Below the pieces are notes generated by a model that was not told the origin of the DNA, searched no databases, and saw nothing but the letters and a program-made list of their open reading frames with translations. This document shows, piece by piece, positions 18,369 through 64,000 of a stretch of 64,000 nucleotides of DNA (positions are counted from its first letter, which is position 1; each line of letters starts with the position of its first letter). Location of the stretch: the NCBI GenBank assembly GCA_000091205.1, contig AP006499.2; one strand, given 5' to 3'. The translations under genes were made by a program, and so were the position numbers. Source of the stretch: Cyanidioschyzon merolae. Taxonomy: Eukaryota.

Positions 18369-19865
18369 CTATTCAACAGACAGGTTCACATCGAAAGAGC
18401 CCTCGAATGCGCAGATATGGGGCAGCGCTTTTCGGACAAGTTCCAGTTCTCGACGTAGTTGCTCAAGCGTCGGGCGTTCGACGAGCTTCACCGTCTTCAC
18501 GAGTGCGTCCTGTAGCCAGTATCTGCGCACGGCGTGTGCGGCGTCGCGCTCGCTCACTGAATCGCCAAGAACGAGGAGGTTCAGATTGGCCGGGTAATTT
18601 GGATGTCTCTCAAGCTCTGCCCTGAATGCCTGCGTTTTCCAGTCCGATGGCGAGTGCGGAAAATCTGACTCGTAAATGCTTCGGGCAGAAATGATACGAA
18701 TATCGCTCGAGTCGAGATGTTGCAAAACTCGTGGCATGAAGCGGGCCGCTGAAAGTTGCACCCAACCAGTTTCCGCATTGGTAATGACACATACGCGGCC
18801 ATATTGTTGGGCGTCATCCAAAATACCAATGACGAGATCTTCTAGTGCATCCAGATTTGCGACAAGTTCCTGCGGTAACGATTCCGTGTCATCTACGCGG
18901 AAACCTAAAGTTGAGAGCCACGTCGACGAGAGCAGCGTATCGTCCCAGTCGAAAAGCATGATCGTGCAATCAGGAGCACAGATTCGCCTCGCCTGCTCCC
19001 GCTGGGTCGCGAACCCAGGGCTGTTTCGGTCGTGGTGCTCAATTTTCAAACCATTTTCCGGGACGTCCAGAAGCGACCATTCCGCGCACCTCCGTGAAAA
19101 GGAATCGGAAGGTTCGGGCGCGGTCACACGCTGGCGCTGCCATGATTCGCCGCACGTCAAATCTACACCATGGACGACAGGTGCACTGCTACTAGCACCG
19201 TCTACGTCGCCAGAGGTAAACTCCGCCGCGACTCCAGAGGACAGCATCCAGCTTCGATCATTTTTCCTAGTTTCTGTACAAACATGTACTGCAAATCGGT
19301 TGTTGTCGAAGCTCTCATACGAATCTGGTTCACATAACATTCTCAGCGAGTCCCTGGGCAGCATCTCGTCCCCGTCTGAGACAGTGCGGGAGAACGACTC
19401 TGCCGCAACGGTTGATGCGGTATCAGGTTCTGATTCGGACTCCGAATCACTCAGGTACCCAGGTAGGGCGTCGTCCTCCGGGACGAAGCGCCCTGCGAGC
19501 GAAAAGCGCACGAAAGGGGTATTTTCCTTTTCAGAGTCGCCCAAACCCTCAGATTCCGAAGCAAAGAGACTCTGCTCGTCACGCCAGGACTTGGCCGTGG
19601 AGGATGACGAGTTCGCGTGATCCTCGGCGGCGCTGATCGATAGCGAGTCTTCCGGTACCTCGGTTTCCACGGACATACTCGAGGTGTCGTCGGGTGTCAA
19701 CGAAGGACAGAAGTTCACTCGAACTGTTAGCGTCTCTTGATCCGAGGAGCTGCTCCGATCCAAGACAGAAAGGCGTCGACCTCGTTGGCGTGCGCCGCAA
19801 CCGTCTCGAAGAGTTCGAAGTCTGTTACGCTGTGAAGCTATTGAACCAGCAACTGCTCCCATCAA
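18369..19865 (-). CDS. HAD-superfamily hydrolase-like protein with a long acidic/Ser-rich N-terminal region
   Basis: HAD motif I 'MLFDWDDTLL', motif II 'VCVITNAETGW', motif IV-like 'LVLGDSVSERD'. The N-terminal ~250 aa are low-complexity (S/D/E-rich). Confidence 0.55.
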   Translation of the reverse strand: MMGAVAGSIASQRNRLRTLRDGCGARQRGRRLSVLDRSSSSDQETLTVRVNFCPSLTPDDTSSMSVETEVPEDSLSISAAEDHANSSSSTAKSWRDEQSLFASESEGLGDSEKENTPFVRFSLAGRFVPEDDALPGYLSDSESESEPDTASTVAAESFSRTVSDGDEMLPRDSLRMLCEPDSYESFDNNRFAVHVCTETRKNDRSWMLSSGVAAEFTSGDVDGASSSAPVVHGVDLTCGESWQRQRVTAPEPSDSFSRRCAEWSLLDVPENGLKIEHHDRNSPGFATQREQARRICAPDCTIMLFDWDDTLLSSTWLSTLGFRVDDTESLPQELVANLDALEDLVIGILDDAQQYGRVCVITNAETGWVQLSAARFMPRVLQHLDSSDIRIISARSIYESDFPHSPSDWKTQAFRAELERHPNYPANLNLLVLGDSVSERDAAHAVRRYWLQDALVKTVKLVERPTLEQLRRELELVRKALPHICAFEGSFDVNLSVE

Positions 19866-20235
19866 ACCTGACAGAGCCCACCCTCTATACGTACAACAGA
19901 TAAATCTAGTCCGTTCACGGACGAGAAGACCGTTCCGGCTACGCTTTCCGTTTCGCTGCAGACGTCTCCGTGCGCGCTTTTCAGAGTTGTCACAATCGCC
20001 AGCTCACTGCGTCGATAAATACCACGAACACAAACCACAGTGTGACCAGGAGCCAGTCAGAAACCAGACAAGCGCTGTGGAGTCCAAGAAAAACGAAGTT
20101 CCCACAACGCTCGTCGAGGCCTCACCTAGAACACCCCTGAAGACAAACGTCTTTGAAAAGGAGAACGCTGTCGCCGGCGGTGTACAGCAGTGGCGGCAAA
20201 CGGGTCCTAGACAAATCGTCCCCAACTGATGGGCA

Positions 20236-20338
20236 GACACCTCGCCGTCTTTCTCGACCGGTCACCCACTACTGGTTTCAACTTTTTCTCATATAGTTCC
20301 ACTTTGGAAGATTGTCCAATTAAGTTTTCTCTTGTCAG
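20236..20338 (-). other. Conserved 3' noncoding tail of the Fanzor element (candidate omegaRNA scaffold / right end)
   Basis: The ~105 nt immediately 3' of the Fanzor stop codon align ungapped at roughly 65% identity with the sequence 3' of the second fragment (39650-39775), e.g. 'caaagtggaactatatgag' vs 'caaggtcgaactctacgcg' and 'gttgaaacc' vs 'gtcgaaacc'. Beyond that point the two flanks are unrelated. Confidence 0.35.
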
Positions 20339-20726
20339 TTATGGAAGTCTTCTTTCCATCACCGCACATCTGCTTATATTGATAGCGGCATTAAAGTCAC
20401 GGTTCACGAATTCCATACGTTTCTTCCCGTTGACTGTACTTACTAATGCAAGGGGTCCACGAACTTTCGACATCCTTTCCATTTGCTCTTCCGTCAGCGG
20501 TCCATACTTTTTTATACCTTCAGGGCTCCGGTGGCACTTTTCCATCTCCACTCTCTGCAGTGTACAACCCAGCTCATGGTGTGTATACGATGTTCGAAAC
20601 TCATCTACAGGTATTGTAACAAAACGCCGTGCACACTCCATGTACGTTCTTGCCGTTGGAGCTGGTGTACACCCTTTTTGTATCCTCCGGCGCCCTGCTC
20701 CGTACGCTACCACGAGCCCTGACTTT
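20339..20726 (-). CDS. Fanzor-like nuclease, C-terminal segment (TnpB 'VDPxYTSQ'-like segment, degenerate Zn-ribbon, RuvC-III)
   Basis: 'TIPVDEFRTSYTHHELGCTLQRVEMEKCHRSPEG...VNGKKRMEFVNRDFNAAINISRCAVMERRLP*'. 'RDFNAAINI' is a near-canonical TnpB/Fanzor RuvC-III motif. The frame opens after a TGA at about 20727-20729 and overlaps the end of the previous segment, so a 1-nt frameshift or a tiny intron separates them. Confidence 0.65.
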
Positions 20727-21395
20727 CATTCTCCTTCAAGGCACTCATTAAAAAATTCGCGAACGCGCGCCGCTTCCCACAATACAGATTCATTCGCAGA
20801 CGAGCGCACCGGGGATTTGTATACTCTTCCCACAGCGCATCCCAATGAGCAACACGAACTTCCATGAATTTCCGAAAAGCTTCCAAGTCCGCTCCGCGGC
20901 TCGTCACCTCACTCAAAGCTTCCAGGTGATCCTTCATTCCTGCATTCCATGCCTCAATTTTCTTCCTTGCATTCATGATTCCCGATTCTCGATAGTATCT
21001 TGCTCTCGAGAGCCTCAAAAGACGCATGTCTTTCCGACGTAAGTTGCCGTCAGTACCATCTTCCGCACGCTTGGGTGCTGCGATGGTTGCGATATTTGTG
21101 TTTCCGGGGTCCGCGCCAACGACAAAGTCGTTATTCTGCACTTTCTGCGTCGCAGGATACGCCTCCTTCTCATCTTCATGCTTCGTTACGGACAATATTG
21201 AAGACGGCACTGGACGATCTGCCTTCAAGCGCCGATAGTGTACACACGTGGCTACTCCATCGGTTTCGATCATTCCAGTGAATACCTTTTGTTTGCTGAC
21301 TTTGAGAAGTTTGAAATTGAAGATGTTCTTCCAGTGCGTCTCCCGCTTATCAGCGGAGAACTCCTCCCTGCTGACACTGAACTCCGGACTGATCT
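20707..21395 (-). CDS. Fanzor-like nuclease, WED/RuvC-I segment
   Basis: The frame is open from about 21395. It contains beta-rich '[40 protein letters not shown]' followed by '[20 protein letters not shown]', matching the G-I-D-x-G RuvC-I motif of TnpB/Cas12/Fanzor. It ends at a TAG at 20707-20709 and is immediately followed by the next segment in a different frame. Confidence 0.6.
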
Positions 21396-21485
21396 CCTAC
21401 ATGATGCCGTAAAGGATTCTGGAGTCGATAGTCACAAAATGTGACCTGATGTTGCACATTGGAACGCCGTTGAAGCGCTTCCCCA

Positions 21486-22244
21486 TTAGGAAAGCCTTCC
21501 GTCTCTCCCACGCTTCATTTTTTCCTCACCCAGTTTCATCTCTGCCTCGCGTCCCAGTTCTCGGTCCAGGAACACAAAATATCGCAGAATGAGGCGATAG
21601 GATCTTCCCTCATCTTTTTTCAACGCTGATATCTTTTCTGCTGAATTCGCCAACCCCAGTGCCGCACGATGCTCTTTCATAGCCGCACGGATTACAGAAT
21701 CCTCATTCGTGCTCTCATTTGACTCCTTCTTCTCGACAAATTCGACCTCATCTTCACGCTTGCGATCTTTCGTGATGCCATTGATAATCGCCCATATTCC
21801 TTTACGAGACAGGTCCGGGTAGAGTGCAACTACGGCGCGTATCATGAAACGTTCGAGGTTCACGATCAGATGGTTCTTCAGGTTCGTGAGGTACTTCATC
21901 GCCCCATAGTCGTACATATCCCGGTCACCCTTGTATCGAGTACCATTAAAGCTGTAAAAGGAGTGTTTTTCGTGGAGGACGTGCACCCGCTCATTTTCCC
22001 TCCGCGCTTCCTCTGTACCAAGCATCAGGTATCGAATAAAGGTCTTGTCGAAGAACTTGTCCGGAATCTTGACCGTTTCCATTTGCGTCACGTCGCGATA
22101 CGTCTCCCTCGCCAAATGCATCAGTCCTGACGACGCCTTCACAATATTCCTGAAGTAAGAGTCGACACGTTTTTCGACAGCGTCTCGCAACTTTTCCCTG
22201 CAGGGATCCTTGATATGTCCAAGAAGAAAGGCTTTCACCACCAT
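21486..22244 (-). CDS. Fanzor-like nuclease, N-terminal (REC-like) segment
   Basis: 252-aa ORF directly upstream of, and in the same orientation as, the RuvC-containing segments. Its frame stays open upstream to about 22337 with a K/R-rich stretch (EKEEKKNRKGEALRRRPQERR). No catalytic motifs are expected in this part. Confidence 0.45.
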   Translation of the reverse strand: MVVKAFLLGHIKDPCREKLRDAVEKRVDSYFRNIVKASSGLMHLARETYRDVTQMETVKIPDKFFDKTFIRYLMLGTEEARRENERVHVLHEKHSFYSFNGTRYKGDRDMYDYGAMKYLTNLKNHLIVNLERFMIRAVVALYPDLSRKGIWAIINGITKDRKREDEVEFVEKKESNESTNEDSVIRAAMKEHRAALGLANSAEKISALKKDEGRSYRLILRYFVFLDRELGREAEMKLGEEKMKRGRDGRLS

Positions 22245-22453
22245 CTCGTCGTACTGTCGTCTTTCTTGCGGCCTTCGACGTAGAGCCTCCCCCTTTCGGT
22301 TCTTTTTCTCTTCCTTTTCTTCTGGACTCGGTAATGTTTATTGTTTTTTTTTCTGGCAGCCAGCCACACTGAGCCTCCAGGATCGTCGACTTGCTTTTTC
22401 ATAGCCTTCATTTTTTAGTTTTTTTGAAAAAGAACGCTCTTTGAACGCTTCTG

Positions 22454-22777
22454 TCATATACTGCGAAAAAACACTTTACTAGACTTGTTTGAGGTTTGAG
22501 GCACAAATGAAATGAAAAACTGCTTTTTTGTGAAACTCCAACGGAAATCCAACTTGTTCCGGTAGTACACGCTTCTGATCAGAATCGCTTTTCTCTTCAA
22601 CGGCGACATGCGCGTCTTGTCAGTTGACTGCCCGATCTCCCTGATGCGCTCACCGAGCGGGATTCTTTTTTCATTGACAAGACGTTTACTTAGGCCAGCG
22701 TTCTCCGACTGTGCGCTTTTTCTTTTCTTTCTTTTTTTATTTGGTTTTCTGCGCGCGTTGAAGTATCCATCAAACAC
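22454..22777 (-). CDS. Possible 5' exon or ORF of the Fanzor element with a basic NLS-like tract
   Basis: 'FNARRKPNKKRKKRKSAQSENAGLSKR' is a classic mono/bipartite NLS-like stretch. It lies about 120 nt upstream of the REC-like segment on the same strand, in an AT-rich patch. Confidence 0.3.
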   Translation of the reverse strand: MFDGYFNARRKPNKKRKKRKSAQSENAGLSKRLVNEKRIPLGERIREIGQSTDKTRMSPLKRKAILIRSVYYRNKLDFRWSFTKKQFFISFVPQTSNKSSKVFFRSI

Positions 22778-23269
22778 CCTACTCCCAAGTCACATTACCT
22801 AAACTTCTTCTCGGATTTTCTGGTCGTTTCATGCGTTCTATCACACACCTAATGCCTGCCCTAGTCATCCGCAATAGCGTCTTTACCTTCGGTACAGTTG
22901 CATCACGGAGACAGAACGGCGTTGCCGTACCACAGAGGGCGTCCGTTCGAACTGGGGTACGGATCATACGTGGATCGCGGCGAACGGGGTTGTGACCGGG
23001 TTCTTTGTGCGTCGCTCGAATGTGCGTTTCCTCCAATGCCCTGTAGCTGCTGGTTCAGAAGCATTCGGTTCTGGTCTTTGAATTCAGCTCCGACTTTGGA
23101 TTACATGAGAGAGCGTCAATTTTCGTGTAGGTCATACCTATTTTCAGCTTTGGTGCGGACGCGTGCACGAACGTCACGCTTTCCAACGACTACATGGAGC
23201 CCCGAGCCGTTGGGAACGATCCCAACACGACGAGCTCCGCCGCTCGAGAATACATCGGAAACGATGGTG

Positions 23270-23493
23270 CACTGCATCCACATGGAACACGAGCCGCAGT
23301 CGAAGCGTGTCCCTGCTCTGTGCCCAAGAGTGCACTGATCTAGGGCAACTCCAATATTCAATGTACCGTTTTCAAATGCACTGCATCCACATGGAACACG
23401 AGCCGCAGTCGAAGCGTGTCCCTGCTCTGTGCCCAAGAGTGCACTGATCTAGGGCAACTCCAATATTCAATGTACCGTTTTCAAATGCACTGC
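23270..23493. repeat. Direct duplication, ~110 bp x2
   Basis: 'cactgcatccacatggaacacgagccgcagtcgaagcgtgtccctgctctgtgcccaagagtgcactgatctagggcaactccaatattcaatgtaccgttttcaaatg' occurs twice in tandem (starts 23270 and 23379). It generates duplicated small ORFs in the track. Confidence 0.9.
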
Positions 23494-23764
23494 AAGCGCC
23501 AGAGTACTGCAGCGCAGGTGCGACGATGGCGAACCGGACACCAAATGAAACCTTGGACGCACTTGCGCTCCAGCGGCACACACCCGTTCTATGCGAGCTG
23601 TCTACTGCGCTATTGGGAGATACAGTGCTGTTCGGGGCTCAGCAAAGTCAAGCAATCTTTTACGACCAGGAGCCGAACTGTTAGTGGCGTCTGGGCTCTA
23701 GGGGGCGAACAGTTGAACCGGCTCGAGCCGCTCGTACCAGCGAGGTCAAAGACTTGGGGGTGTC

Positions 23765-25129
23765 GTGGTGGACACCTCGCCCGACGAGCCGCTACCGCTT
23801 AGGTCTGGTTGCGTCGAAGCGGCACGTCCGCTGATGGAAGCACCATCGAACGTGGTTCGAGTCGGCCCCGACCGTCAGTCTGCCCAGGTAGCGCTGAGCG
23901 AAACGCTGAACGCAGAGCCTCGAGAGGCGTGCCTCGGCTTTCTCGCCCAAACCTGGCGATATCGCACAGCGACAGCTTCGAGATCCACCTGGTTCGTGTC
24001 TTCTCGATTTCGTAATGCCCTGCCACAGCCAAGCCGGACTGCACCGAATCGGGGCTTGAAGCGGCGTACTGTGCCAGTAGCGCGTGCCTCGCCAAGCGAG
24101 CGCTCTCCTGCACACGCGGACAGTGGTGGTACCGCGTACCCTCGGGTGGGAGCGCCACAACCAGCGAATCGCCCAAACTGGTTTCGAGTGCCTGCTGTTG
24201 GAGCACTCCGTCCGGACTCACGCTTTCTTCGTCTGCGGGAGAGTCTCCGAGCGAGAAAACTGTCCACAGTTTGCGAGGAGGCCCAATGCCCCAATATCGG
24301 GGAATGTTGGAACGGGGAGCACGCCACCGCTACCATCATGCTGCTCGGAGATACTTGTACTCGAGGGTGCCGATTCTGTGCTGTGAAAACTGCAGCTCGA
24401 CCAGGACCACCAGATCCTGAGGAGCCCATGAATGTGGCTGCAGAGGTTGCGAGTTGGGATATTGACTACGTTGTTCTCACAAGCGTCGATCGTGATGATT
24501 TACCGGATGGGGGCGCAGCGCACTTTGCGCGCACGGTCCAGTATTTGAAGCAGTTGCGTCCACAGTCTACTAGGGTTTCTTCTGATCAGGATGCACAGCA
24601 GATGCCTCCGACGAAGCGGCCACTCTTCGTGGAGTGTCTCGTTTCCGACTTTGCCGGCAACACTGATGCCGTTCGCTGTCTGGCAACCTCTGGACTCGAT
24701 GTGTATGCACATAATCTTGAGACTGTGGAGCGCTTGCAGCAATACGTTCGGGATCCGCGAGCAAACTATGCACAATCCCTCTTCGTGCTGCGGCTAGCGA
24801 AGGAGTTCAATCCGCAACTGGTGACCAAGTCATCTTTGATGCTAGGTCTCGGTGAAACGCCACAGGAAGTCCTGCAAGCTATGCGGGACTTGCGTGATCA
24901 CCAAGTTGATGTTGTGACGTTTGGGCAGTACCTTCGTCCGACTCCGCATCACCTGTCCGTTGTCGAATGGATTCATCCGGACCAGTTTGCCACGTACAGA
25001 AAACTCGGGGAGGAGATGGGTTTTCTCTACGTGGCCTCAGGGCCCCTGGTGCGCAGCAGCTACCGAGCTGGTGAATACATGATGACGCGGCTCGTCGAGC
25101 AACGTCAGCAGTTCGCGACTCCGACCTGA
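23765..25129 (+). CDS. Lipoyl synthase (radical-SAM LipA/LIAS)
   Basis: Auxiliary cluster '[13 protein letters not shown]' and radical-SAM cluster '[13 protein letters not shown]' are diagnostic, along with '[19 protein letters not shown]' and '[21 protein letters not shown]'. The N-terminal ~150 aa of the ORF are atypical and the true start or a 5' exon is uncertain. Confidence 0.85.
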
Positions 25130-33274: not shown

Positions 33275-34192
33275 ATGCACTCGAACTTAATCGTTGCGGT
33301 GGCACTCTCGACTGCAGCTGGTCTATCGACTGCGCTTGGAGGCCTTGCGGTCGTTCTGCTACCGGGCGCGAAGAGTGCTTCGGGTGAGCACAGGCTGGGG
33401 CGTTGGCAGGGCACCACTGCGGGGTTTATGGTTGGCCTCAGTTTCTTTGATCTGCTGCCGGAAGTATATCGAGCCCGGAATCAACTGCCACTGCCTTCGT
33501 CGGTGCTATGTTTTGTGCTCGGTGCACTGGTGTTTGCGCTGCTGGAGCGGCTGGTTCCAGAGCCTTTCACGGAAACAGAGGCGAGCTTGGCCGCCCCGGA
33601 CGGCATCGGTATTCGCTCGTATTCATCAGCTGAAACGCCGAGTGCGAGGCGTGGACCGTCCTGTGCGCCAAGTTTGAAAGCAGGCTTCAACGCCGAGCGC
33701 CACCGCCAAGGCACCAGAGCTGTGGCACTTCGCTCGGCGCTGCTGACGACGCTGAGCCTCGCGCTGCACAATCTCCCGGAAGGCATGGCTGTTGCGGCCT
33801 CAGCATTGAGCGGAGGACTCCGGTTGGGGTTGCCTCTGGCTATCGGTATTGCCCTGCATAACGCACCGGAGGGATGTGCGATAGCGGCGCCTGTGTACGC
33901 TGCCACGAACTCGCGCATCCAGGCCGTAACCTGGGCGTTGATCGCAGGCCTCGTAGAGCCACTGGGCGTCTTCTTCTTGATATGGTTCCGGCTTAACCGC
34001 AGGGCTTTGACGGGACTGTTGGCAGGAGTCGCTGGCATCATGACCATGCTGTCCTGTACCGAGCTGCTGCCCCAAGCGCTCCGTATGAATGAGCAGCGGC
34101 CTGGCGTCGTATTCAGTGAATTCGCTTTCGGCATGCTCCTGATGCTTGGTCTGCTTTCCGTGGTCCGATGGTCATTTGGTGTCGAACTGTGA
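33275..34192 (+). CDS. ZIP-family metal transporter (ZupT/GufA-like)
   Basis: Paired metal-binding TM motifs 'HNLPEGMAVAAS' and 'HNAPEGCAIAAP' are present. About 8 hydrophobic helices. A short variable loop carries an H/E-poor linker. Confidence 0.75.
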   Translation: MHSNLIVAVALSTAAGLSTALGGLAVVLLPGAKSASGEHRLGRWQGTTAGFMVGLSFFDLLPEVYRARNQLPLPSSVLCFVLGALVFALLERLVPEPFTETEASLAAPDGIGIRSYSSAETPSARRGPSCAPSLKAGFNAERHRQGTRAVALRSALLTTLSLALHNLPEGMAVAASALSGGLRLGLPLAIGIALHNAPEGCAIAAPVYAATNSRIQAVTWALIAGLVEPLGVFFLIWFRLNRRALTGLLAGVAGIMTMLSCTELLPQALRMNEQRPGVVFSEFAFGMLLMLGLLSVVRWSFGVEL

Positions 34193-36549
34193 AGACGGTG
34201 TCTGCGAGAGCACTGTAGAAGCTCACACTGGCACGTTTTGGCCGGAGCTCTCCAGACGATAACAGAGAGCATTGCTCCGAGGGAAGCACCTATGTGCGTC
34301 TCGATATGCGGCGTCCATCCAAGGCCGCAGTCTTCAGATTCTCAAGCGCTCCTGAGTTGCCTTACGAGGAAGCGAAATACTGGCACTTCTATCGTTGGTG
34401 TTTGCGAAGACCAGCGGCGGCACGAAACTTCCAAATGATTGTGACGCGATACAGAAGGCGAAGCTCGGTAATCCCTCGATCTATGAAGACGAAGTGTGCT
34501 GCGTTAGCATGGAGCGCATGGTGTTCCCAGAGTCCGATAAGACAACTTCCTGGATTTTTTTCTGATCTGAATGACACTGCGTCTCAGGGTAGTAGCTGGT
34601 GTCGTGCTTTCGATGTCATCCATTGCGTCTTGTACCTAAAGCGCGCTGTGAAAGCGCTAACACACAATTGATGCTTCTGGCGGTAACGTGCCTGGTGGAA
34701 TTGCTGTGAAGGCTTCCCCTGGAAAACATATCCGCGGGGAAAATCTTCCGAGTGGTGAGATGCAGGACTCCATTTGGCATCACGTAGCTTCTTACTCGAA
34801 AAAGCCGCATCGAGTTTCACGGGACTCGACGCAGCTCAATAAGCGACTCTACATTTGAGGAGCGGACGCAAGACTTCCAGCTGTCTACATTTCCATGGGA
34901 CTTTTCGATCAAACCTTTGTGCGTCGATGCAGCCAATGCACGGGACAGAAGACGTCATTCAGCCTGATGAAAAGGTCAGCGTGTTGCACATACGGGTGCC
35001 AGCATACTTCGATGCGTGGCTGCACCACCTCTTCCACAGAAACGTCTAGATCGCTGGCGCCAACGAGCGTTAGACACAGCTCACAAACCAAAACAATATG
35101 CGGGTCAATCTTGGGCGCTTCACGAAGTGCACCTCATGGGCGCCGTATTTTCTATTTACTGCCCCGAACAAGTGGGGATTGATGGAACGCGTTCCTGAAC
35201 CTGGTGATGCAAGGAAATGGCGAGTTGATGGTAGCCGAAGACGACAACATGGTGGCGAGTTCGAAAGCGATACCCCAACGAGATCGGGAGTCGCCTTGGA
35301 TCGTCGATGCTGACCGTGCATCGCTCGGCCTTGGAGCTGAGAAGCTCTCATTCAAAAGATGGTGAGATCGTGATGCTTCGCTTCCGGGAATCTTGCGTCA
35401 ATGCGTTCTGTGAAACAGAAACCGCCGCCCCAGAGCAAAAGCAGACGCGCTCTTCGAATCCGCGCGTCATCACGCTCCTCGAGCATCCATTCGATCCAGT
35501 TCTCATGTGTCAGATCAAGTCCGACGATATCGCCGTAGACACTTCTGTGCTCCACGGGGTAGTGCTGCTCGGCTTCCTCAGTGAGCTTCAGTTGATCTCT
35601 GCGAGCGAGTACGATGCAGTCAACCAACGTGAGGAGTAGTATCGGTTGTTGCCGTTCAGGGTTTCACGTTTACACGCGGGAAATCGAAAGCAGTCCACGG
35701 GTACGATGCGGCCCGCTGGCATATCCATCGAGATGCACTTTGTGAAACCTAGGTCCGAGTCAAGCGGCAAGACTCATTTGCATCTATGCGACATAAAAGA
35801 ATTGGAAGACCTTGTAGCGGGGCGTGGATCTCGGATTCAAATGCGTTATGGCCTTCGCCATTCCGCCAAATCAGGAGAACGGAGCCAAAGACCTGGACTG
35901 AAACTAGACGATGATGCTGCACAGCTTTTTTTCGTCGACAATGATCGAGACTTGGATATGCTGGACACCAGGACGCCCACCTCGATGCGCTGAACGCCGA
36001 ATCGAGTCCAGGGTGATGCCCAAGAAGCTGCATTCGGAGCGTGCATGAGCATCCCAAATGGATCACGCGGACGGCATCTTTATTTTCTTGGAAGGAATAC
36101 ATGGGAGTGCGCTGGCGTCGCCAACGTTTTCAATTGCACGGAGGAAACAAGCGTACGTTCGCCAACTTGTCCCATGAACTGGAAAAGGGACTAGCAAACA
36201 TGCCGCATCGTCTTGGGTTCGCCGCTGACGCTGGACGTATTGTGTTGCGCACGGGCTGCATACCTGCATCTTCGTTAGAGCATCCATCAAGTCCAGAAAT
36301 CGATTCTGTTGGATTTTCGTGAATGCGTTCAGGACGAGGTACACGCATCACAAACGCAGGTACACGCGGACACACTCAGAGAAGTAGAGCATGAAACAGA
36401 GCTGAATGCACGAGATGGTGTCCGGTACGCTGCCCGAACGTCGGCTGGCGAGGCAATCGAGGCTGTGCAGTTCGCCACGACATGAGTCTAACAGCGACAG
36501 CGCGCACAAGAAGTTCGCATGCACCGACCCTTGAACACCTCGATGAAGA

Positions 36550-36740
36550 CCCGTCAATGTGCACTGCCTCGGGAGCGTCCGACCGCTGGATGTCGAGCGA
36601 ACTTGCCAATGAATCGTTTCGTACGCAGCATGGGCGTTAATCAAGTCCCGTCAATGTGCACTGCCTCGGGAGCGCCCGGCCGCTGGATGTCGAGCGAACT
36701 TGCCAATGAATCGTTTCGTACGCAGTATGGGCGTTATGCT
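36550..36740. repeat. Direct duplication, ~97 bp x2
   Basis: 'cccgtcaatgtgcactgcctcgggagcg(t/c)ccg(a/g)ccgctggatgtcgagcgaacttgccaatgaatcgtttcgtacgcag(c/t)atgggcgtta' occurs twice in tandem (starts 36550 and 36647). Confidence 0.9.
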
Positions 36741-37105
36741 GAAAAACCTGAGACGTCCAACAAAGAAAAATCACCGGCCAGGAACGCGGACATTGGATTC
36801 CCCCGCCTGGAGACCAAGGCACTGGTACGGTACAATCAGCGATCCAGTAAAGCTATGGTGCCGTATACCTAGCGTGGAAACGATTTTACTGCGCAGCTGG
36901 TATACGATAATGGTGTCCCATTATGCGAAGCTGCCGCTTCCGAGTTACGAAAGCCAGTAGCAGCTACGACGCTGGGAAATGGATCCATTCTCTGGAAGCG
37001 TGCTGTCGCCCGCGTTCTCGATTCGGATTTGATGACAGAACATCGTTCGCAGCGGAGCGCGCTTTGCTTGTCAACGCTGGCGCGTGACTTTTACGACGAC
37101 CAAGT

Positions 37106-38077
37106 TTAGTCGAATAGACCAAAGCCGAGATCCTCATCGGACTCCTCTGCCGCCTCCTTCGTTTCGGCCGCTCCGGACGCGGCGGCAGTGTCCTCGGCAG
37201 ATGCCGTGCCAGCTGCCCCAGCTGCACCAATACTAGCGGCGGCGACCAATTCCTCCAGTTTGCTCGGATCTGAAAGGAGCTCTCGCAGCGATCGCGACTG
37301 CGGCATGTCGTAGTCGGCGGCGATACTCGCCGCAACGAGGTCCTTGGCGGCGCGCACCAGCAAGTGGGGAACAGCCGGCGCGGTCAGGTAGCCTGTTGCG
37401 AGTGAAATCGCCGCTATGGTGTCGACAGCTTCTCGGACTTTGTTCCGCAGATCGTCCGGAGTTATGTCGAGAACCGAGGGTTCATACATCGCGCCTTCTT
37501 CATAAATTTGTCGAATCTTCATGCCGTAGGTGAACGGCTCGATGCCCATTCTTTGTAACAGAGCAACTGCTGACGCACTAACCCGCTCATTCTGCTTGAT
37601 CACTTGCACGTCCGACACAATGCAGATCGAGCCGCGCTCTATCTTCGTTGGAATCGAAAGAGCCTGGAAGAATGAGGTCATGTCTGGGGGCATACCTGTC
37701 GGCCCGGCAGGCACGAACACATCGCACTGAGCAATCTGACCCGCCTTCGCAGGCGCTGGCACCTTGTTTCTTAGGATGCAGTCTCGAACTTCACGAAGGT
37801 CACCACGAGTGAAAACAAAGCTGACATTCCCTCGTAACGCATGGAGCACTTTCTCGAGTGCAGGCTTCCGACTGACCCGATCTTTCAGCGTTTTCCGAAT
37901 CACAGTGTTCTTGCCGCATAAGATGACGGAGTCGAGTGCTCGAAGCTCTCGACGGGCGTCTTGAAGTTGCTTCGATCCAACGTTGTCGATCTCAACGACT
38001 AGAATTTTGTCGTAGGTATCGAAGAGTTGCCCGGCTTTTACGATGTAGGCCCCTTTGCGTTCCTGTTTCGAAGGCAT
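37106..38077 (-). CDS. RPLP0: 60S acidic ribosomal protein P0 (uL10)
   Basis: 'MPSKQERKGAYIVKAGQLFDTYDKILVVEIDNVGSKQLQDARRELR' matches the P0 N-terminus. The C-terminus ends in the P-protein tail 'EESDEDLGFGLFD'. Confidence 0.9.
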   Translation of the reverse strand: MPSKQERKGAYIVKAGQLFDTYDKILVVEIDNVGSKQLQDARRELRALDSVILCGKNTVIRKTLKDRVSRKPALEKVLHALRGNVSFVFTRGDLREVRDCILRNKVPAPAKAGQIAQCDVFVPAGPTGMPPDMTSFFQALSIPTKIERGSICIVSDVQVIKQNERVSASAVALLQRMGIEPFTYGMKIRQIYEEGAMYEPSVLDITPDDLRNKVREAVDTIAAISLATGYLTAPAVPHLLVRAAKDLVAASIAADYDMPQSRSLRELLSDPSKLEELVAAASIGAAGAAGTASAEDTAAASGAAETKEAAEESDEDLGFGLFD

Positions 38078-39389
38078 TGCACGCCTCGGAGTAAGGCTAG
38101 GACGCGGTTATCTGAACTTGTCACCGTATTCGATAAACGCTCACGCAGAGTGCCGCCCTCGTGAGTAACGAAGAAAGCCGCCAAGGCAGAAGCGAGCGCC
38201 ACAGGCTACGCGTGGGTCTACAGCGTCCCCGAATGAGCGGGGTGGTGTGTGGGCCGCAGCGACGTGCGACGTCGCGCCGTCCAGCCGAACAAAGTCTACA
38301 ATCATTGTATATAATGGGAAGGAAAGGACATGAGCACCGAAAGCGCAGAGCTGTGCGCGATCGCTGTGACGCGAGCGCGCCGATCTGTCGACAGTCGTTC
38401 AGCTCGGGTCTGTTTCAGCCCTGCTGCGTGATATCGAATGCTTTTTCGCAGTGTATAGCCGGAGATCGAAATCACGTTGCAGTGAACCACATACAATGTA
38501 GGCATCTCGCGTATAGGACATATTCTTTACTGAAGATCGCAACGAGGATTGCATTCCTCGTTCGGGTCAGTTATATCGCTGTACTCAGGTGACTGAGGAA
38601 CAATGAAAGACCGCCATCAAAGCGCTCCGCGCCGAAAACCGGTGTTGTCAAAGACTGCCTGCGGCCAGTTGTAGAGAACGACACGTTTATCTTCTTGCGG
38701 AAAGCAGAAGCGACGACAGTCGTCACCGTGGGCGTCTCTGTTGCTCAACAGCCTATTCGTGTGGTCCAGAATACACTGGGTACAGTCCCAATGTAAGTTC
38801 AGGTTCATTCACAGCCATTTTCCACCGAAATAGCGACGACTACGTTGCTGGAACGTCGCGGCCTGTATGACGCACAGGGATTTCGGTTTGTTTTTTTAGT
38901 CGATGAGACTTTCCTCGGATGAGACTGTCAGAGCGTATGTAGAAATTCACGGAGAGCGAGCCTGTAGTATATAGCATGGAACTCGGAGAGAACGAAGACA
39001 TTATCTGTTCCAGCTGCAGTGGATTTATATGGCGGCCTCAGCTTCGCTGATAGGAAAGACTCATCGAACAGCACCAACCACATCGTCGAATCATTGAAGA
39101 CTTTTTCCAGACGTCTGGCGATGTCCTTCTATAGGATGACATTGTATTTCACCATCCGGCTTGCGTTCGAGCTTTCGCCGATTCTACCTGGATAGAGCTG
39201 CTTTTTGAATCCTCCGTAATCTCTATGGACTGACCCCATCGAAGAAGTGTTTTGAATCGGAAAACGTAAAGATCACTCCACTGGGCGATTCGCTGGAGTG
39301 TTCAGGACACGGCGACACACCGGGCTACATTACGTCTTTGTTGCGCAAGTGCTTGCCCCTCCGGAAAAGTCCTCATCCCGGGGCATACA

Positions 39390-39775
39390 GAAGTGTGTTT
39401 CTTTTGATGAACTAAGAAATCTGAGGGCTGAGCTGAGGCGTGCGCGTCAGAGGGTCGAGATGGAAAAGTGCCAGCGCAGCTCTGAGGACATAGAAAAATA
39501 CGGAGCGCTGACGAGGGACCAAATTGAAAACAGGGCGCAAGTTTGAGAGCTATTCGCATGAGTGTATACAACCAACGGCGGCAAGAAACGCAAAAAGTTC
39601 GTGATCCGAGACTTTAACGCTGCTATGAATACCAGGAGATGTGCGGTACTAAAAACGAGACCCGCGGAAATGACGCGAGCCAACTCCGTGGGAGAACCTC
39701 GCAAGGTCGAACTCTACGCGGAGAAGTCGAAACCTGTCGCAGGGGGCCAGTCCAAAAACGCCGGGATGCACCTGC
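39390..39775 (+). pseudogene. Degraded partial copy of the Fanzor-like element (C-terminal ~100 codons plus the conserved 3' tail)
   Basis: Translation 'VSFDELRN...QRVEMEKCQRSSEDIEKYGALTRDQIENRAQV*ELFA*VYTTNGGKKRKKFVIRDFNAAMNTRRCAV' aligns with the first copy ('VDEFRTS...QRVEMEKCHRSPEGIKKYGPLTEEQMERMSKV...VNGKKRMEFVNRDFNAAINISRCAV'). It has two in-frame stop codons and has lost the H/C residues of the Zn-ribbon. The 3' tail homology ends at about 39775. Confidence 0.65.
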
Positions 39776-39983
39776 GAATCGATATTCATTTACCCTGCAC
39801 ACTCGTGAAAACGTTTTGTCAGTTTGCGCGCGCACTCGTTCATGGGTATACGCTGATGCGCGCGGATGCGATCACGCTCGCGATGCGCCTCTGAGGCAGC
39901 CTCTGCACTGAATTGTCGGTTGAATCCGTCGACACGCTCTGAAATACGCCGAAAATGCTCTCCTAACCGCGAATCTGAAGCTT

Positions 39984-41474
39984 ATGAGCAGCCATAGTGC
40001 AAAGAGCTTTGATGTGACTGGGTCCAAGTGGGTCCATGTGCGGGGCGTGAGGTCGGGTCGGCGGCTTGAAGCGTCCGAGTGCAGCGTTCCAACTGATTCT
40101 GCGTCGTCACGGGCTCGTAACGTACGAAAGCAAAGACAGCGTGCTGGTTATGTGGATCTCGAGACGTCTCCGTTGACACCAGCAGCTTCAGGTTCCAGAC
40201 GGCAGACGGTTGCTGCTTGTGGCAGTTCTCGGCGGTATCGCCGTTTTATGAACGAATTGTACTTGCGCTTGAGTGCGGTTCATTATGGGAGTGTCGGAGG
40301 CCTCGGCACTGAGGCCTTGGATTCACCGCTGGATACCTGGGAAGTTGGCGTTGAGCGGCCTCCAACGGAAGCGGCGTGGTTGCACGAATTCTGGACAGAT
40401 ATGCGCGAGCGACACGCCGAGTCTCCCCAGATGGAACGGGTACTTCGAGGAATGGGCGACGCATGGCATTTTTGGGAACCGTTTCGTGAATGCACCGAAG
40501 AAGAGGAGAGAATCTTGCTGGACGCCTTGTCTTCGATTCGGAAGAGCGTATCCGCACGCCATCGCTCGGGTGAAGCGCGCACCCCCGAGCCCCCTATCCC
40601 GGGCAGCAGGCAGCATCGCACCGCCAGATCGAATGCGCTCGAGTCGCAGATGAAGGCGTTGCATCTTGGGAATCAACGCGACAATTCGAATGACATCGTT
40701 TGCGAGGTGGAATCTGAAGAAGAAAACTTTGCTGCGGGCATAGCCGGGCACCATCCACATGCGCGGGTTGAAGCAGCAGAGCATGTATTCCCGTTGGACG
40801 AGGATTGCCAAGTTGATCCCGCACCACCCACGTCGCAGCTCGAGATAGCGGACGCAAATGAGGTATCCAGATTGATCTTGGCATTCTTTCGTCTCAGTTA
40901 CGCCACACGAGAGCTTCTGCGCCGCTATTCCAACGATCTCTGGTTGCTCATAGCCCACCATGAATCCATTTTACACGAGCATGGCCTTGTACCGCACCTG
41001 AACCAAAACCACCTTCAGTGGCTCTTGTCTCCGGGTCGCTGTCCACGGTTGTCGAACTCACAGGGTCCAGCAACGGGCCTGCGGCCGACACGGTACGCAG
41101 CTTCGGTCCATGGGCTAGCTGATCCGGGGCCAGACTCGCGAACGTTGACCCTTGAGGCGTCATCACGTCTCCATCGGCGCATCCTGATGGCACTAGCCGC
41201 GTATCATTGTCTCGACTGCGAGCCTGTCCAGCAGTCGAGTTCCAATCTGGCAGATGTGTCCTCTGGTGCTGTGTCCCAGACAGAGACGCACACCAAAAGC
41301 AGACTCCGTCTCGCTTTGAACCAGCATCGTGCTGCCTCTGTGACCGTTCCCCTGGCGCACATTGTCTACCAGCTCAAGTTCTGTGACGCGAGCGTTGACC
41401 GGGCAGTGCGGCGTTGCGTAGAGGCACGAGTGTCTGACGTTTCGGCGCTTCCGCAGACGGCGGTGGGTCAGTAA
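39984..41474 (+). CDS. Hypothetical protein
   Basis: 496-aa ORF in a GC-rich region with codon-like periodicity and no recognisable motifs. Given the high GC content it could be a spurious long ORF. Confidence 0.3.
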   Translation: MSSHSAKSFDVTGSKWVHVRGVRSGRRLEASECSVPTDSASSRARNVRKQRQRAGYVDLETSPLTPAASGSRRQTVAACGSSRRYRRFMNELYLRLSAVHYGSVGGLGTEALDSPLDTWEVGVERPPTEAAWLHEFWTDMRERHAESPQMERVLRGMGDAWHFWEPFRECTEEEERILLDALSSIRKSVSARHRSGEARTPEPPIPGSRQHRTARSNALESQMKALHLGNQRDNSNDIVCEVESEEENFAAGIAGHHPHARVEAAEHVFPLDEDCQVDPAPPTSQLEIADANEVSRLILAFFRLSYATRELLRRYSNDLWLLIAHHESILHEHGLVPHLNQNHLQWLLSPGRCPRLSNSQGPATGLRPTRYAASVHGLADPGPDSRTLTLEASSRLHRRILMALAAYHCLDCEPVQQSSSNLADVSSGAVSQTETHTKSRLRLALNQHRAASVTVPLAHIVYQLKFCDASVDRAVRRCVEARVSDVSALPQTAVGQ

Positions 41475-44001: not shown

Positions 44002-44845
44002 GAACTCCCGAGCCGCAGACCAGCTTGAACTAGACGGTTTGCCCGGAACACCCCCAGACTTTTATCGAGAGCGACAGAGGTCGCGCGTTGAGCGGTACCA
44101 GTCGCCGGCCGGTGCCCCGCTGCAGTGTTCGGTGCAGGTGCAGACTACGCAAGAGCACCCGCTTTGGACGTCACACGTGTGGAGCGGGGCTCGCGCTCTT
44201 GCCGACACCTTGTGTTGGCAGCCCGAGCTGATCGCGGGTAAGACCGTATGTGAACTCGGTGCAGGAGCTGGCCTGGTCTCGATTGTAGCGTTTCTAGCGG
44301 GTGCGGATCAGGTTGTCGCGACCGACTACCCGGATCCGGAAATACTCAACAGCCTAGAAAGCAATATCCGAGAGCATACGGCGAATAGCTGCAGTTCTGA
44401 AACAGTCAAAAGAGCCAGCCCAAAGGTCGTACCATATCGCTGGGGCGATTCGCCCGATTCTCTTCAACGATGTACTGGCTTGCAGCGTTTCCAAGTCGTA
44501 TTGCTAGCGGACCTGCTGAGCTTTCATCAGGCGCACGATGCACTCTTACGTAGCGTGAAGATGCTCTTAGCGCTGCCGGCCAATGATCCCACCGCCGTCG
44601 CACTGGTGACATTCACTCACCATCGCCCGCACCTTGCGGAGCGCGATCTTGCTTTTTTTCGCCTTGTGAACGCAGACGGAGCACTCATCGCTGAACCGTG
44701 GCTGTCACCGCTGCAGATGGATCCGATGTTCCCGGACGATCCCGGGGATGTCTGCATCAGGGGTCAGGTGCACCGCTGGCGCCTGCGCTGGCGCTCTGCG
44801 GCGAGCGCATCTGCTAATATCCCTGCTCATGCACGGAATGAGTGA
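44000..44845 (+). CDS. Class I SAM-dependent methyltransferase, METTL21/EFM7/Nnt1-like protein-lysine methyltransferase family
   Basis: '[54 protein letters not shown]' is the typical substrate-clamp plus motif I (E/DLGAGxG ... D-Y) of this family. The start is set at the internal Met 'MNSRAADQL' (ATG at 44000). The upstream 108 codons of the track ORF are probably non-coding. Confidence 0.6.
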
Positions 44846-45108
44846 CCTCGAGAAGCGCTATGCTGTATGCATTCGACACGCAAGCTTCTACGGCTACTCG
44901 TGTTGATGAGTGACCTCGAGAAGCGCTATGCTGTATGCATTCGACGCGCAAGCTACTACGGCTACTCGTGTTGATGAGTGACCTCGAGAAGCGCTATGCT
45001 GTATGCATTCGACACGCAAGCTTCTACGGCTACTCGTGTTGATGAGTGACCTCGAGAAGCGCTATGCTGTATGCATTCGACACGCAAGCTTCTACGGCTA
45101 TTCGTGTT
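44840..45108. repeat. Tandem repeat, 68 bp x4
   Basis: Unit 'gagtgacctcgagaagcgctatgctgtatgcattcgacacgcaagcttctacggctactcgtgttgat'. The array starts inside the methyltransferase stop-codon region (stop at 44843-44845) and extends 3' of it. Copies are more than 95% identical. Confidence 0.9.
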
Positions 45109-45759
45109 GCTGTTGTTGCTGATCCTATTGTTGTGATAACGGTGGCGACGACGGACGCCTTTGGCTACGGATCATCACGCTGCGGGCGATGCTGGCAACG
45201 AGTCCGCGTGTATCCACAGCCCGCATCGTAGAGGCGTGGATACATCTCGCACGCGACTTTCTGAGAATTCCATGTCGAGTTTACAGTGTGCCTGCCCCGA
45301 TTATGTGTCGCTACCGCTGTGCCAATGCCGCTTCGATCGGAGACGTCGCGTGACTGGTCAGTGACCAAAAAACGAGCAAGAATCGACTGCGGCAGTTGCG
45401 TTACCGAGTGACTACGGGATCGGCGGTGAGGAGCGCCGAATCGCCACCGAGGATGACAGCAACAGCTTGGTTCATAGGCAGAGCGCATCGTCCAACACCT
45501 GACTTCACAATGTTGGCGTGTTTCCGGTAGAATACAGCGCGCATCCACGTTGAAGTCGCGAGGCATTGCACGGTCCCTGTGCACCATTTTAGAAAACGGA
45601 CGCGAATTGCGTGTGTGTGCGTGTTCATGGTCCATGAAAATCGCAGCCTGCAACAGTAGTGCACAGAATTTTCAACGACCTTTACGTCCAGTTTGGGGCC
45701 AAAATGGCTTTCGTATTGATGAGGGCGCGCCTTGGTCACTGTTCCGGCATCATTCTCTA

Positions 45760-55600: not shown

Positions 55601-55870
55601 AAAGCAAAGCATCCACCACAGCTTCCGGTTTGCACAGCACAGGTGGTATTGCCGCTTCTGCGAAGACGCCCAGTGCGTCTGTTCGCTGCCGCAGCTTCAG
55701 TGCGTCGCTATCCAGCACAGCGACGCTCATCTGACTCCTGCAAAAGACAACAGCAAGCCGAGGTGACATCGGGAACACCTCCCGCCGGCGCTCGTATTAC
55801 TGTTAATTCGTTATGCTGTCCTGCAAAACACCAACCAGTTGCAAGAGGCACACGCCAGACGTCCCACTGC

Positions 55871-56690
55871 CACTAGTCATCAGCGTTCTACTGGGTCCGA
55901 GTGTCACCTGCTCAGGCACGTGTGCTTGCAACCCTGTCATTTTCAGATCTTTAGTACCGTACCACTAGTCATCAGCGTTCTACTGGGTCCGAATGTCACC
56001 TGCTCAGGCACGTGTGCTTGCAACCCTGTCATTTTCAGATCTTTAGTAACGTACCACTAGACATCAGCGTTCTACTGGGTCCGAGTGTCACCTGCTCAGG
56101 CACGTGTGCTTGCAACCCTGTCATTTTCAGATCTTTGGTACCGTACCACTAGTCATCAGCGTTCTACTGGGTCCGAGTGTCACCTGCTCAGGCACGTGTG
56201 CTTGCAACCCTGTCATTTTCAGATCTTTGGTAACGTACCACTAGTCATCAGCGTTCTACTGGGTCCGAATGTCACCTGCTTAGGCACGTGTGCTTGCAAC
56301 CCTGTCATTTTCAGATCTTTGGTACCGTACCACTAGTCATCAGCGTTCTACTGGGTCCGAGTGTCACCTGCTCAGGCACGTGTGCTTGCAACCCTGTCAT
56401 TTTCAGATCTTTGGTAACGTACCACTAGTCATCAGCGTTCTACTGGGTCCGAGTGTCACCTGCTCAGGCACGTGTGCTTGCAACCCTGTCATTTTCAGAT
56501 CTTTAGTAACGTACCACTAGACATCAGCGTTCTACTGGGTCCGAGTGTCACCTGCTCAGGCACGTGTGCTTGCAACCCTGTCATTTTCAGATCTTTAGTA
56601 ACGTACCACTAGACATCAGCGTTCTACTGTGTCCGAGTGTCACCTGCTCAGGCACGTGTGCTTGCAACCCTGTCATTTTCAGATCGCTGC
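55871..56690. repeat. Satellite-like tandem array, 92 bp x ~9
   Basis: Unit 'cactag(t/a)catcagcgttctactgggtccga(g/a)tgtcacctgct(c/t)aggcacgtgtgcttgcaaccctgtcattttcagatcttt(a/g)gta(c/a)cgtac' has a period of exactly 92. Several variant positions alternate between neighbouring units, e.g. 'ggtaccgtacc' / 'ggtaacgtacc'. The array is the source of the near-identical small ORFs in the track at 55839-56891. Confidence 0.95.
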
Positions 56691-62350: not shown

Positions 62351-62719
62351 ATCCCAGACGTCTCCGGGCGCCTCGTACTGTTTCCTGATCAGAATTGTAT
62401 AGTAATAAACAATTATAGCAATATATATCTACCTTTGGTGTTGGGCGATTGCGGACAGCACCGTCGAGGAACCATCCCAGACGTCTCCGGGCGCCTCGTA
62501 CTGTTTCCTGATCAGAATTGTATAGTAATAAACAACTATAGCAATATATATCTACCTTTGGTGTTGGGCGATTGCGGACAGCACCGTCGAGGAACCATCC
62601 CAGACGTCTCCGGGCGCCTCGTACTGTTTCCTGATCAGAATTGTATAGTAATAAACAATTATAGTCATATATATCTATCTTTGGTGTTGGGCGAATGCGG
62701 ACAGCACCGTCGAGGAACC
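62351..62719. repeat. Tandem repeat, ~122 bp x3, with an AT-rich core
   Basis: Unit 'atcccagacgtctccgggcgcctcgtactgtttcctgatcagaattgtatagtaataaacaa(t/c)tatag(c/t)aatatatatctacctttggtgttgggcga(t/a)tgcggacagcaccgtcgaggaacc'. It lies immediately upstream of the receptor-kinase start. Starts at 62351, 62474 and 62596. Confidence 0.95.
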
Positions 62720-63742
62720 CAGTGACACACGGATGTGTTTTCGAGATGGACAATGGGCATTCGTCGTTCCTAGCATTCGAAAGGGTGTTGATGATGAGGA
62801 TAACGACCGCAGCGATCCCGATACGAAATCGGGGAATTAGTGTACGTCATTCATAGCATTCGACGGGTGTCAATAGGGATGTCCATGGCGGCGATCGCGT
62901 GACGGTTTCCGTACCTGGGGTTGTTGTAGGCGCAAGCGGTGCATATACGGACGTTTCCATCTGCGCTTCATTCTCGATTTGGCTCTTCTTGTTCGTATAC
63001 AGCATCGATGTGCGATTCGGAACTGGCATGCTAGCCTGTGGTTGATTGCGGGAGCGGCGTGCCCTCGTATGTCCGCCGTATCGCCTTCTCTGGAAGCTGC
63101 ACTGCAGTGCTTGAACGCTTGCTCCATCTCTCGGCAGTTGTTCTTCATGAGCACAGAGGGCTTGCCTCGGTGCGTCTCTCCGTGTTGGCGCCATATACCA
63201 TAGTGCGGAATTACCGCGTCGTTCTGGGCGATGCTGTCCGTGAATATGCTTTCTGGTGGAAGCGCGAGCGCATGCTTACTCGTGCGATAGAGGATTTGCA
63301 GAACGCGATGTTTTCCATGATGACACGCAAGAATCGCGAGAAAAATTAAGACTGGTGGAAGCATACGAAACTTTGCAACTGTCGCTGGTCCCATGACGCG
63401 AATCGACGACGCACTCTGTACTGAAAGGGATCGCTGTGATAACGAAGTCCGAATTCTAGACCCTTTTCTACGCACACACACACATACACACAGAGAAGAG
63501 CCGGAAGTCTCCGGAAGTATACCCCACGAGATGGATCATAGGGCTGCTGCGGGCCTGCCGTTTCGTCGATAGCCACAATGAGATGAGGATTTATCGTCGC
63601 AACGGAATCGATCATGTGATTTGAGAAGGTCACGAACTGGTCGGCAGGAGCTTGTGAAGAAATCGTCAAGGGACGCCGTCGAGGTTCTTCGCTCGTCAAA
63701 GTCATGCGACGGAGATCTTTGGACGCACGCTGTTGTTTGCTT

Positions 63743-63970
63743 GAAAAGAAAGATCGAAAACTCGTACCATTTGTGATTTGAACATGCTACGCGTCAGGAA
63801 CGCAGAAATGTCGAGGCTCGTACATGTGAATTGGGCGATAATTGCGGGTGTTTTCATTCTGAAAAGAACGATCGAAAACTCGTACCATTTATGATTTGAA
63901 AATGCTACGCGTCAGGAACGCAGAAGCGTGGATGCTTCTACATGTGAACTGGGCGATGATTGCGGTTATT
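63743..63970. repeat. Tandem repeat, ~118 bp x2
   Basis: 'gaaaagaa(a/c)gatcgaaaactcgtaccattt(g/a)tgatttgaa(c/a)atgctacgcgtcaggaacgcagaa...tgaa(t/c)tgggcgat(a/g)attgcgg' occurs twice (starts 63743 and 63861). Confidence 0.85.
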
Positions 63971-64000
63971 TTAAAAATGCCTGTTCGAGGGCGTTCCACG

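Follow-up and report, generated by a model that had tools for sequence, protein, structure and literature searches.

The segment at positions 39429-39775 (+) of the analyzed window, a 64,000-nucleotide stretch of the Cyanidioschyzon merolae genome, is best explained as a dead, neutrally decaying remnant of a CMe-1 (CMe-1A) Fanzor1 element, which is internally deleted and non-coding and has no RNA-guided function (probability about 0.85). This segment, hereafter fragment C, corresponds to positions 2738-3084 of the CMe-1A consensus and thus to codons 611-726 of the 734-codon Fanzor1 ORF. Together with the sequence preceding it, fragment C most likely forms a single copy of a variant CMe-1 element with an internal deletion (38398-39775), composed of a leader and the last 116 codons.

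A single Fanzor1 family, CMe-1A, has been described in the C. merolae genome (Bao & Jurka 2013, Mob DNA 4:12; PMC3627910). It comprises about 150 copies, each approximately 80% identical to a 3169-bp consensus; the elements lack TIRs, some copies are still intact, and the 734-aa CMe-1 protein was assigned to Fanzor1 in the same study. We aligned this consensus (supplementary file 2 of PMC3627910) to the whole window, and we used an independent nucleotide model derived from 79 CMe-1 copies in hot-spring metagenomes. The C-terminus of the published CMe-1 protein, ...GRRLHVSWRRFV, is the same as that of the independently built consensus. The consensus ORF ends in ...RRLHVSWRRFV / ...KKTGRRLHVSWRRFV followed by the stop codon at consensus 3108, leaving a 3' UTR of only 59 nt. 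GADPG and NRDFNAAINI can be recognized as motifs in the family sequence. A profile of seven family proteins matched the Guillardia theta Fanzor1 (9cer) with E=5.6e-4, only around the DPG motif. The Pfam Cas12f1-like_TNB model matched the family ORFs with E=0.0055, under the gathering cut-off, and the Pfam scan of the ORF pieces and intact homologues revealed nothing except this sub-threshold match. The last ~40 nt of the CMe-1 copies (L007-L086; CMe-1A consensus ~3130-3169) form a terminal hairpin that occurs in two sequence forms, CGTTCGA-CTT-TCGAACG and CGTTTTTC-TTTT-GAAAGGCG, each of which is self-complementary. In a fixed register, the covariation of this hairpin was not significant; it may be relevant to the transposition mechanism.

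An earlier note on this DNA had pointed out that the region resembles a Fanzor gene located near 20 kb on the opposite strand (copy A, described below), and this resemblance is real. A BLASTN search of 19001-23500 against the whole window returned one non-self match, which pairs 20250-20576 (-) with 39758-39429 (+) at 69.4% identity over 330 nt (E=6.5e-34). In a Smith-Waterman alignment, fragment C and copy A share 229 of 327 positions and score 126, as compared to 11.4 ± 1.4 in 500 dinucleotide shuffles (z=82), so that the similarity lies far beyond the shuffled controls against which the note had proposed to judge it. At the protein level, the TBLASTN match covers 90 aa, of which 52% are identical (E=4e-17). 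In the BLASTN alignment with the published consensus, fragment C is 78.4% identical over 347 nt, ungapped, with E=4e-79, and its reading frame is colinear with the consensus across 115 codons. Chance or low-complexity similarity, which would make the whole relationship spurious, is ruled out by these values. In nhmmer with the independent model, fragment C was recovered with E=1.2e-74 at model positions 2496-2847, and copy A reaches position 2932. The nucleotide identity to the Fanzor gene, previously put at about 75%, is accordingly to be replaced by two figures, about 70% to copy A and 78.4% to the family consensus.

Fragment C no longer encodes a protein. The frame starting at 39391 contains two in-frame stops, and its translation, 'RAQV*ELFA*VYTT', is exactly as had been reported. 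In the RuvC-III motif region, fragment C reads IRDFNAAMNT where the consensus has NRDFNAAINI. The mismatches between fragment C and the consensus are distributed 18/21/36 over the three codon positions (p=0.024). This bias implies that part of the divergence arose in a coding lineage, the rest being neutral decay.

Copy A (20148-22637, -) aligns with CMe-1A consensus 671-3169 at 85.5% identity and lacks consensus 1-670 in colinear form. Two frameshifts, near 21486 and 20713, disrupt its ORF, as do an in-frame TAG near 21400 and, about 40 codons short of the consensus stop, a premature TAA at 20339-20341. Copy A itself is thus a pseudogene. The ORF frame beyond the TAA of copy A is kept in many CMe-1 copies. 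What had been read as a 3' tail common to both copies therefore belongs to the coding part of the consensus, copy A merely having a premature stop, and since fragment C covers only codons 611-726, it is wholly ORF-derived. Similarly, the one-codon deletion attributed to fragment C is a 3-nt indel that represents a deletion in copy A, as fragment C aligns with the consensus without gaps.

Both copies are nearer to the consensus (85.5% for copy A and 78.4% for fragment C) than to each other (only 70%), and copy A is therefore not the parent of fragment C. This is what independent decay would produce, and the two copies are separate broken descendants of family master copies. On the other hand, the match to the CMe-1A consensus supports the description of fragment C as a second, inverted and pseudogenized copy of the same Fanzor family, as well as the past mobility of this family in the genome, which the published count of about 150 CMe-1A copies had already established (PMC3627910).

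Just upstream of copy A, an inverted CMe-1A piece matching consensus 84-254 is located at 22778-22950 (+). The same inverted piece is found upstream of the copies in L017, L028, L029, L030, L035, L041, L044, L049 and L080. Its recurrence at these loci marks the arrangement as a subfamily feature and points to a subfamily whose 5' region is rearranged. The interval from the 5' side of copy A to the lipoyl synthase gene (23765-25129) contains a perfect tandem duplication at 23268-23494, with a 109-nt unit, 2.1 copies and 100% identity.

At its 5' side, fragment C starts later than was previously assumed. The earlier note had placed the start at 39390, but the homology to the ORF begins at 39429, and no significant similarity links 39390-39428 with the ORF upstream of the break: the best alignment 5' of 39429 was equalled by 401 of 500 shuffles. 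The proposed loss of the zinc-ribbon residues, with HHELGC becoming NLRAELRR, holds in part. ELRR does correspond to ELGC, but 'NLRA' is not a mutated form of 'THHE', as the homology starts only at 39429. Reading 39390-39428 as zinc-ribbon codons ('VSFDELRN' against 'IPVDEFRT') was likewise not significant, and the 5' UTR and start region of the element explain this stretch better. In a four-way alignment, 39391-39428 corresponds to the element 5' UTR and start-codon region, with GAAGTGTGTTTCTTTT...GGCTGAG aligned with ...GTTCTTTTTCAAAAAA...GCTATGA, after which the sequence jumps to consensus 2738 (CATGAGCTGG). The junction to consensus 2738 sits in an ATGA/TGAG microhomology.

The sequence further upstream belongs with this 5' UTR-like segment. 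The region 38398-39428 (+), comprising leader X and the 5' UTR-like segment, is homologous to ~1 kb of sequence directly in front of a full-length Fanzor ORF at another locus, L038. The aligned parts, 38398-39399 and L038:1896-2900, are 70.2% identical over 1014 nt in the same orientation (E=5e-118). At L038, leader X is followed immediately by the A-rich 5' UTR and then the ATG of a CMe-1-type copy of full length, which covers model positions 362-2873 at L038 2847-5233. The identity between the two X sequences (70.2%) is about the same as that between fragment C and the 3' part of the L038 ORF (70.6%), which fits one insertion of one age, with the leader and the 3' piece arriving together.

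These observations bear on a simpler explanation, in which fragment C is a 5'-truncated, 3'-only stub and everything upstream of it is unrelated host DNA. Such a stub would agree with 39429-39775 being the only high-scoring match to the CMe-1A consensus in the region, and with the absence of a significant BLASTN match between leader X and this consensus. However, X (38398-39402) shares 70% identity across 1 kb with the sequence abutting a Fanzor 5' UTR and ATG at the non-orthologous L038, and 39391-39428 aligns with the element 5' UTR and start-codon region. Furthermore, fragment C is truncated at its 3' side as well and hence is not the RNA-proximal end. We therefore regard the stub as unlikely and favor a single internally deleted copy of a variant element. 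The earlier statement that only the RNA-proximal end survives cannot be maintained either, given that the match stops at consensus 3084, with the last 85 nt gone, and that about 1 kb of leader lies upstream.

Further comparisons concern leader X. L038 is not the orthologous locus of a diverged species, because an HSF-like gene lies on its other side and neither RPLP0 nor CMQ447C was found there by TBLASTN. Leader X has no sign of coding potential, as its mismatches are distributed 96/100/106 over the codon positions, without periodicity. The derived substitutions common to fragment C and L038 lend no specific support to a joint subfamily, as there are three in the 3' region, below the mean of 4.8 for 62 copies. 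Among the 80 loci fetched, L038 is the only other one with leader X beside a Fanzor ORF. The L038 contig stops at about consensus 3116, short of the element 3' end; the X-type variant may have an alternative 3' terminus. In strain L003, 16 private substitutions are concentrated within 38496-38835 (340 nt of leader X), with nearly identical flanks, a tract that looks like gene conversion from a paralogous X copy.

The present structure most likely arose in four steps. A variant CMe-1 element with the alternative leader X of about 1 kb would have inserted into the spacer between RPLP0 and CMQ447C. Either before or after the insertion, a microhomology-mediated internal deletion would have removed consensus ~906-2737, and with it almost the entire nuclease, from the start codon to codon 610. 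The terminal 85 nt would then have been lost or scrambled past recognition, and about 22% substitutions would have gathered, including the two stop codons.

A second internally deleted CMe-1 copy is present at L026:6406-6900 (-), where consensus 842-969 is joined to 2907-3084 at a different junction. Internally deleted derivatives thus do occur in the CMe-1 family. This copy and fragment C both end at consensus 3084. A common alternative 3' terminus was rejected because the downstream sequences are unrelated; the shared end may be a breakage hotspot or a coincidence.

At the 3' side, consensus 3085-3169 is not recognizable in fragment C. This part consists of the final 8 codons, the stop codon and the 59-nt 3' UTR with the terminal hairpin. 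A possible residual island at 39805-39831 (+), following about 30 nt of unalignable sequence, resembles the consensus around the ORF stop (TGGAGACGTTTTGTCTAGGGCGCG). The evidence for it is weak: its local alignment score of 12.5 was reached by 16 of 500 shuffles, and MAFFT places it behind a 22-nt insertion. The last ~55 nt of the element have no match downstream of fragment C.

The loss of this end bears on the suggestion that the truncated copy might still produce a guide-like RNA. In the characterized Fanzors, the transposon end gives rise to the omegaRNA, with the flanking sequence on the 3' side as its guide (PMC10432273). Ghost loci that are functional despite lacking the ORF retain both ends, with the omegaRNA beside the right end (PMC10432273; PMC10530073), and the omegaRNAs of the ghost Spu-1 loci of Spizellomyces punctatus work with SpuFz1 (Saito et al. 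2023, Nature 620:660; PMC10432273). In the CMe-1A consensus, the last 206 nt fold moderately better than shuffles (z=-1.95; 7/200), into a long imperfect hairpin that pairs codons ~712-720 with the 3' UTR, plus the terminal hairpin. Across the family, RNAalifold found no consensus structure on either 56 or 42 copies. In the consensus MFE structure, double changes were in slight excess, numbering 18 as compared to 11.0 ± 2.3, with 81.7% against 81.0% paired, and two hand-picked hairpins of the family 3' end showed no significant covariation. Of the long hairpin, fragment C retains the 5' arm alone, in mutated form; the 3' arm is missing, and so are the terminal hairpin and the element-flank junction. 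The 221 nt at its 3' side (39640-39860) fold with no excess over shuffles (z=0.04), and the Rfam scans of both copies gave no match.

On these grounds, a role of fragment C as part of a ghost-type or non-autonomous locus, from which intact CMe-1 Fanzor proteins would receive an omegaRNA or guide in trans, is highly improbable. Such a role would have its precedent in the ghost loci that act with SpuFz1, and it would make sense of the retained leader and partial 3' region, the low strain variation (1 site/347 nt) and the moderate folding of the family 3' end above shuffles. However, the missing 85 nt include the 3' hairpin arm, the terminal hairpin and the junction with the flank at which a guide would start; the part that is kept folds like random sequence and is not recognized by Rfam; the 5' arm of the predicted stem is among the places affected by the 22% divergence from the consensus; and the family as a whole yields no RNAalifold consensus structure, with weak or non-significant covariation. 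By analogy with other Fanzors, the lack of the transposon right end would leave the remnant without RNA-guided function, and our analyses lend no support to a guide-producing locus at fragment C. The earlier suggestion of a guide-like RNA is thus unsupported, in view of the missing transposon end and the shuffle-like folding.

Strain comparisons give a further view of the locus. Five syntenic metagenome contigs carry fragment C and are >99% identical to the window, indicating that the insertion predates these strains; a sixth, L006, ends at window position 38861, short of fragment C. The density of variable sites is 2.9 per kb in fragment C (1 site), 20.8 in leader X, 10.3 in copy B and 2-4 in the host genes. 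The value for fragment C corresponds to a single variable site in 347 nt in four strains, which at >99% identity gives little power, and the comparison with nearby non-coding sequence (~14/kb) yields a Poisson p of ~0.05. This is a weak hint of constraint on fragment C, possibly as a promoter or 5' UTR of CMQ447C. A stronger version, in which the whole 1.4-kb unit 38398-39775 would be an unrecognized ghost-like non-autonomous CMe-1 derivative whose leader or residual 3' region is still transcribed and either feeds RNA to intact Fanzor proteins or has been co-opted as the CMQ447C promoter or 5' UTR, is in our estimation very unlikely. Were it true, the low strain variation (1 site/347 nt) would reflect constraint.

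Fragment C lies in the 1.9-kb spacer that separates the divergent RPLP0 and CMQ447C genes. The ZupT-like gene (33275-34192), RPLP0 (37106-38077, -) and CYME_CMQ447C (39984-41474) match the C. merolae 10D proteins BAM82274, BAM82275 and BAM82276 exactly, and the consecutive numbering of these entries means that no annotated gene is present between RPLP0 and CMQ447C. Further along the window, tandem arrays are found at 44838-45109 (68 nt x4), 55870-56685 (92 nt x8.9), 62351-62719 (123 nt x3) and 63742-63972 (118 nt x2); they are 88-97% identical and bear no relation to fragment C.

Two other Fanzor1-like remnants were detected. Copy B (34700-36744, +) occupies the interval from the ZupT-like gene to RPLP0 and is complete but very degenerate. 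It was identified by colinear profile hits over hmm 22-644, the best of which is 36083-36268 (E=1.5e-9), with additional TBLASTN support. Copy B greatly predates the CMe-1A copies and may be a member of an older Fanzor1 family. A 97-nt unit present twice at 36546-36736, with 95% identity, overlaps its C-terminal end. Copy D (3240-4100, -) is an old degenerate Fanzor1-like remnant with colinear hits over hmm 332-601 (E=7e-5, 1.5e-4 and 0.02); nhmmer places 3688-3578 at E=1.5e-4. The copy possibly extends to 5217.

The proximity of copy B raises the question of whether fragment C could be its displaced 3' end, split off by the rearrangement that brought in RPLP0. Both are on the same strand, and by TBLASTN copy B runs to query residue 561 where fragment C begins at ~548-560. 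Yet copy B already includes C-terminal matches of its own, in colinear order (hmm 602-644 at 36519-36744), it is detectable only by protein profile as against the 78% DNA identity of fragment C to the consensus, and an essential host gene as well as leader X intervene. This origin is extremely improbable; copy B is a separate remnant, to which fragment C does not belong.

Taken together, fragment C is an ordinary, decayed representative of a repeat family known from the literature and brings no new biology; mild novelty is confined to the variant leader X and the deletion derivatives. In practice, repeat masking should include fragment C and copies A, B and D. The CMe-1 ORF should be taken to extend about 40 codons past the stop of copy A, and the gene at 20 kb should be treated as a pseudogene. 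Leader X and the internally deleted derivatives could help to define the CMe-1 ends, the transposition mechanism and the omegaRNA.

Among known systems, the ghost Spu-1 loci resemble fragment C in being ORF-less Fanzor1 derivatives that keep a non-coding leader. However, they keep both inverted-repeat ends and a 75-nt omegaRNA by the right end, strongly conserved over 134 copies, whereas fragment C lacks the right end, is 22% diverged and has no second copy with the same junction among those seen. A right end with an adjacent omegaRNA scaffold, as expected of a ghost locus, is absent, because the match ends at 3084 of 3169, and a structured, conserved non-coding RNA is not indicated either (z=0.04, no Rfam match). 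Another structural parallel is provided by the MITE-like internal-deletion derivatives of DNA transposons, as in both cases the coding core is gone, here with the 5' leader fused to the 3' ORF piece at ATGA/TGAG. The differences are that the deletion form of fragment C shows no sign of amplification and that the 3' terminus for mobilization is absent. As compared to CMe-1A itself, fragment C spans only 11% of the element, lacks the published termini (consensus 1 to ~785 and 3085-3169) and is joined to the ~1-kb leader X, which is foreign to the CMe-1A consensus. It is not a complete element with both termini, as only consensus 2738-3084 is kept, and in place of an open 734-codon CMe-1 ORF it has codons 611-726 with two stops. 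Nevertheless, its nucleotide homology to CMe-1A (78.4%) is near the family-typical 80%, and it shares with this family the same genome, the protein frame of CMe-1 codons 611-726 and a degree of identity typical of its members.
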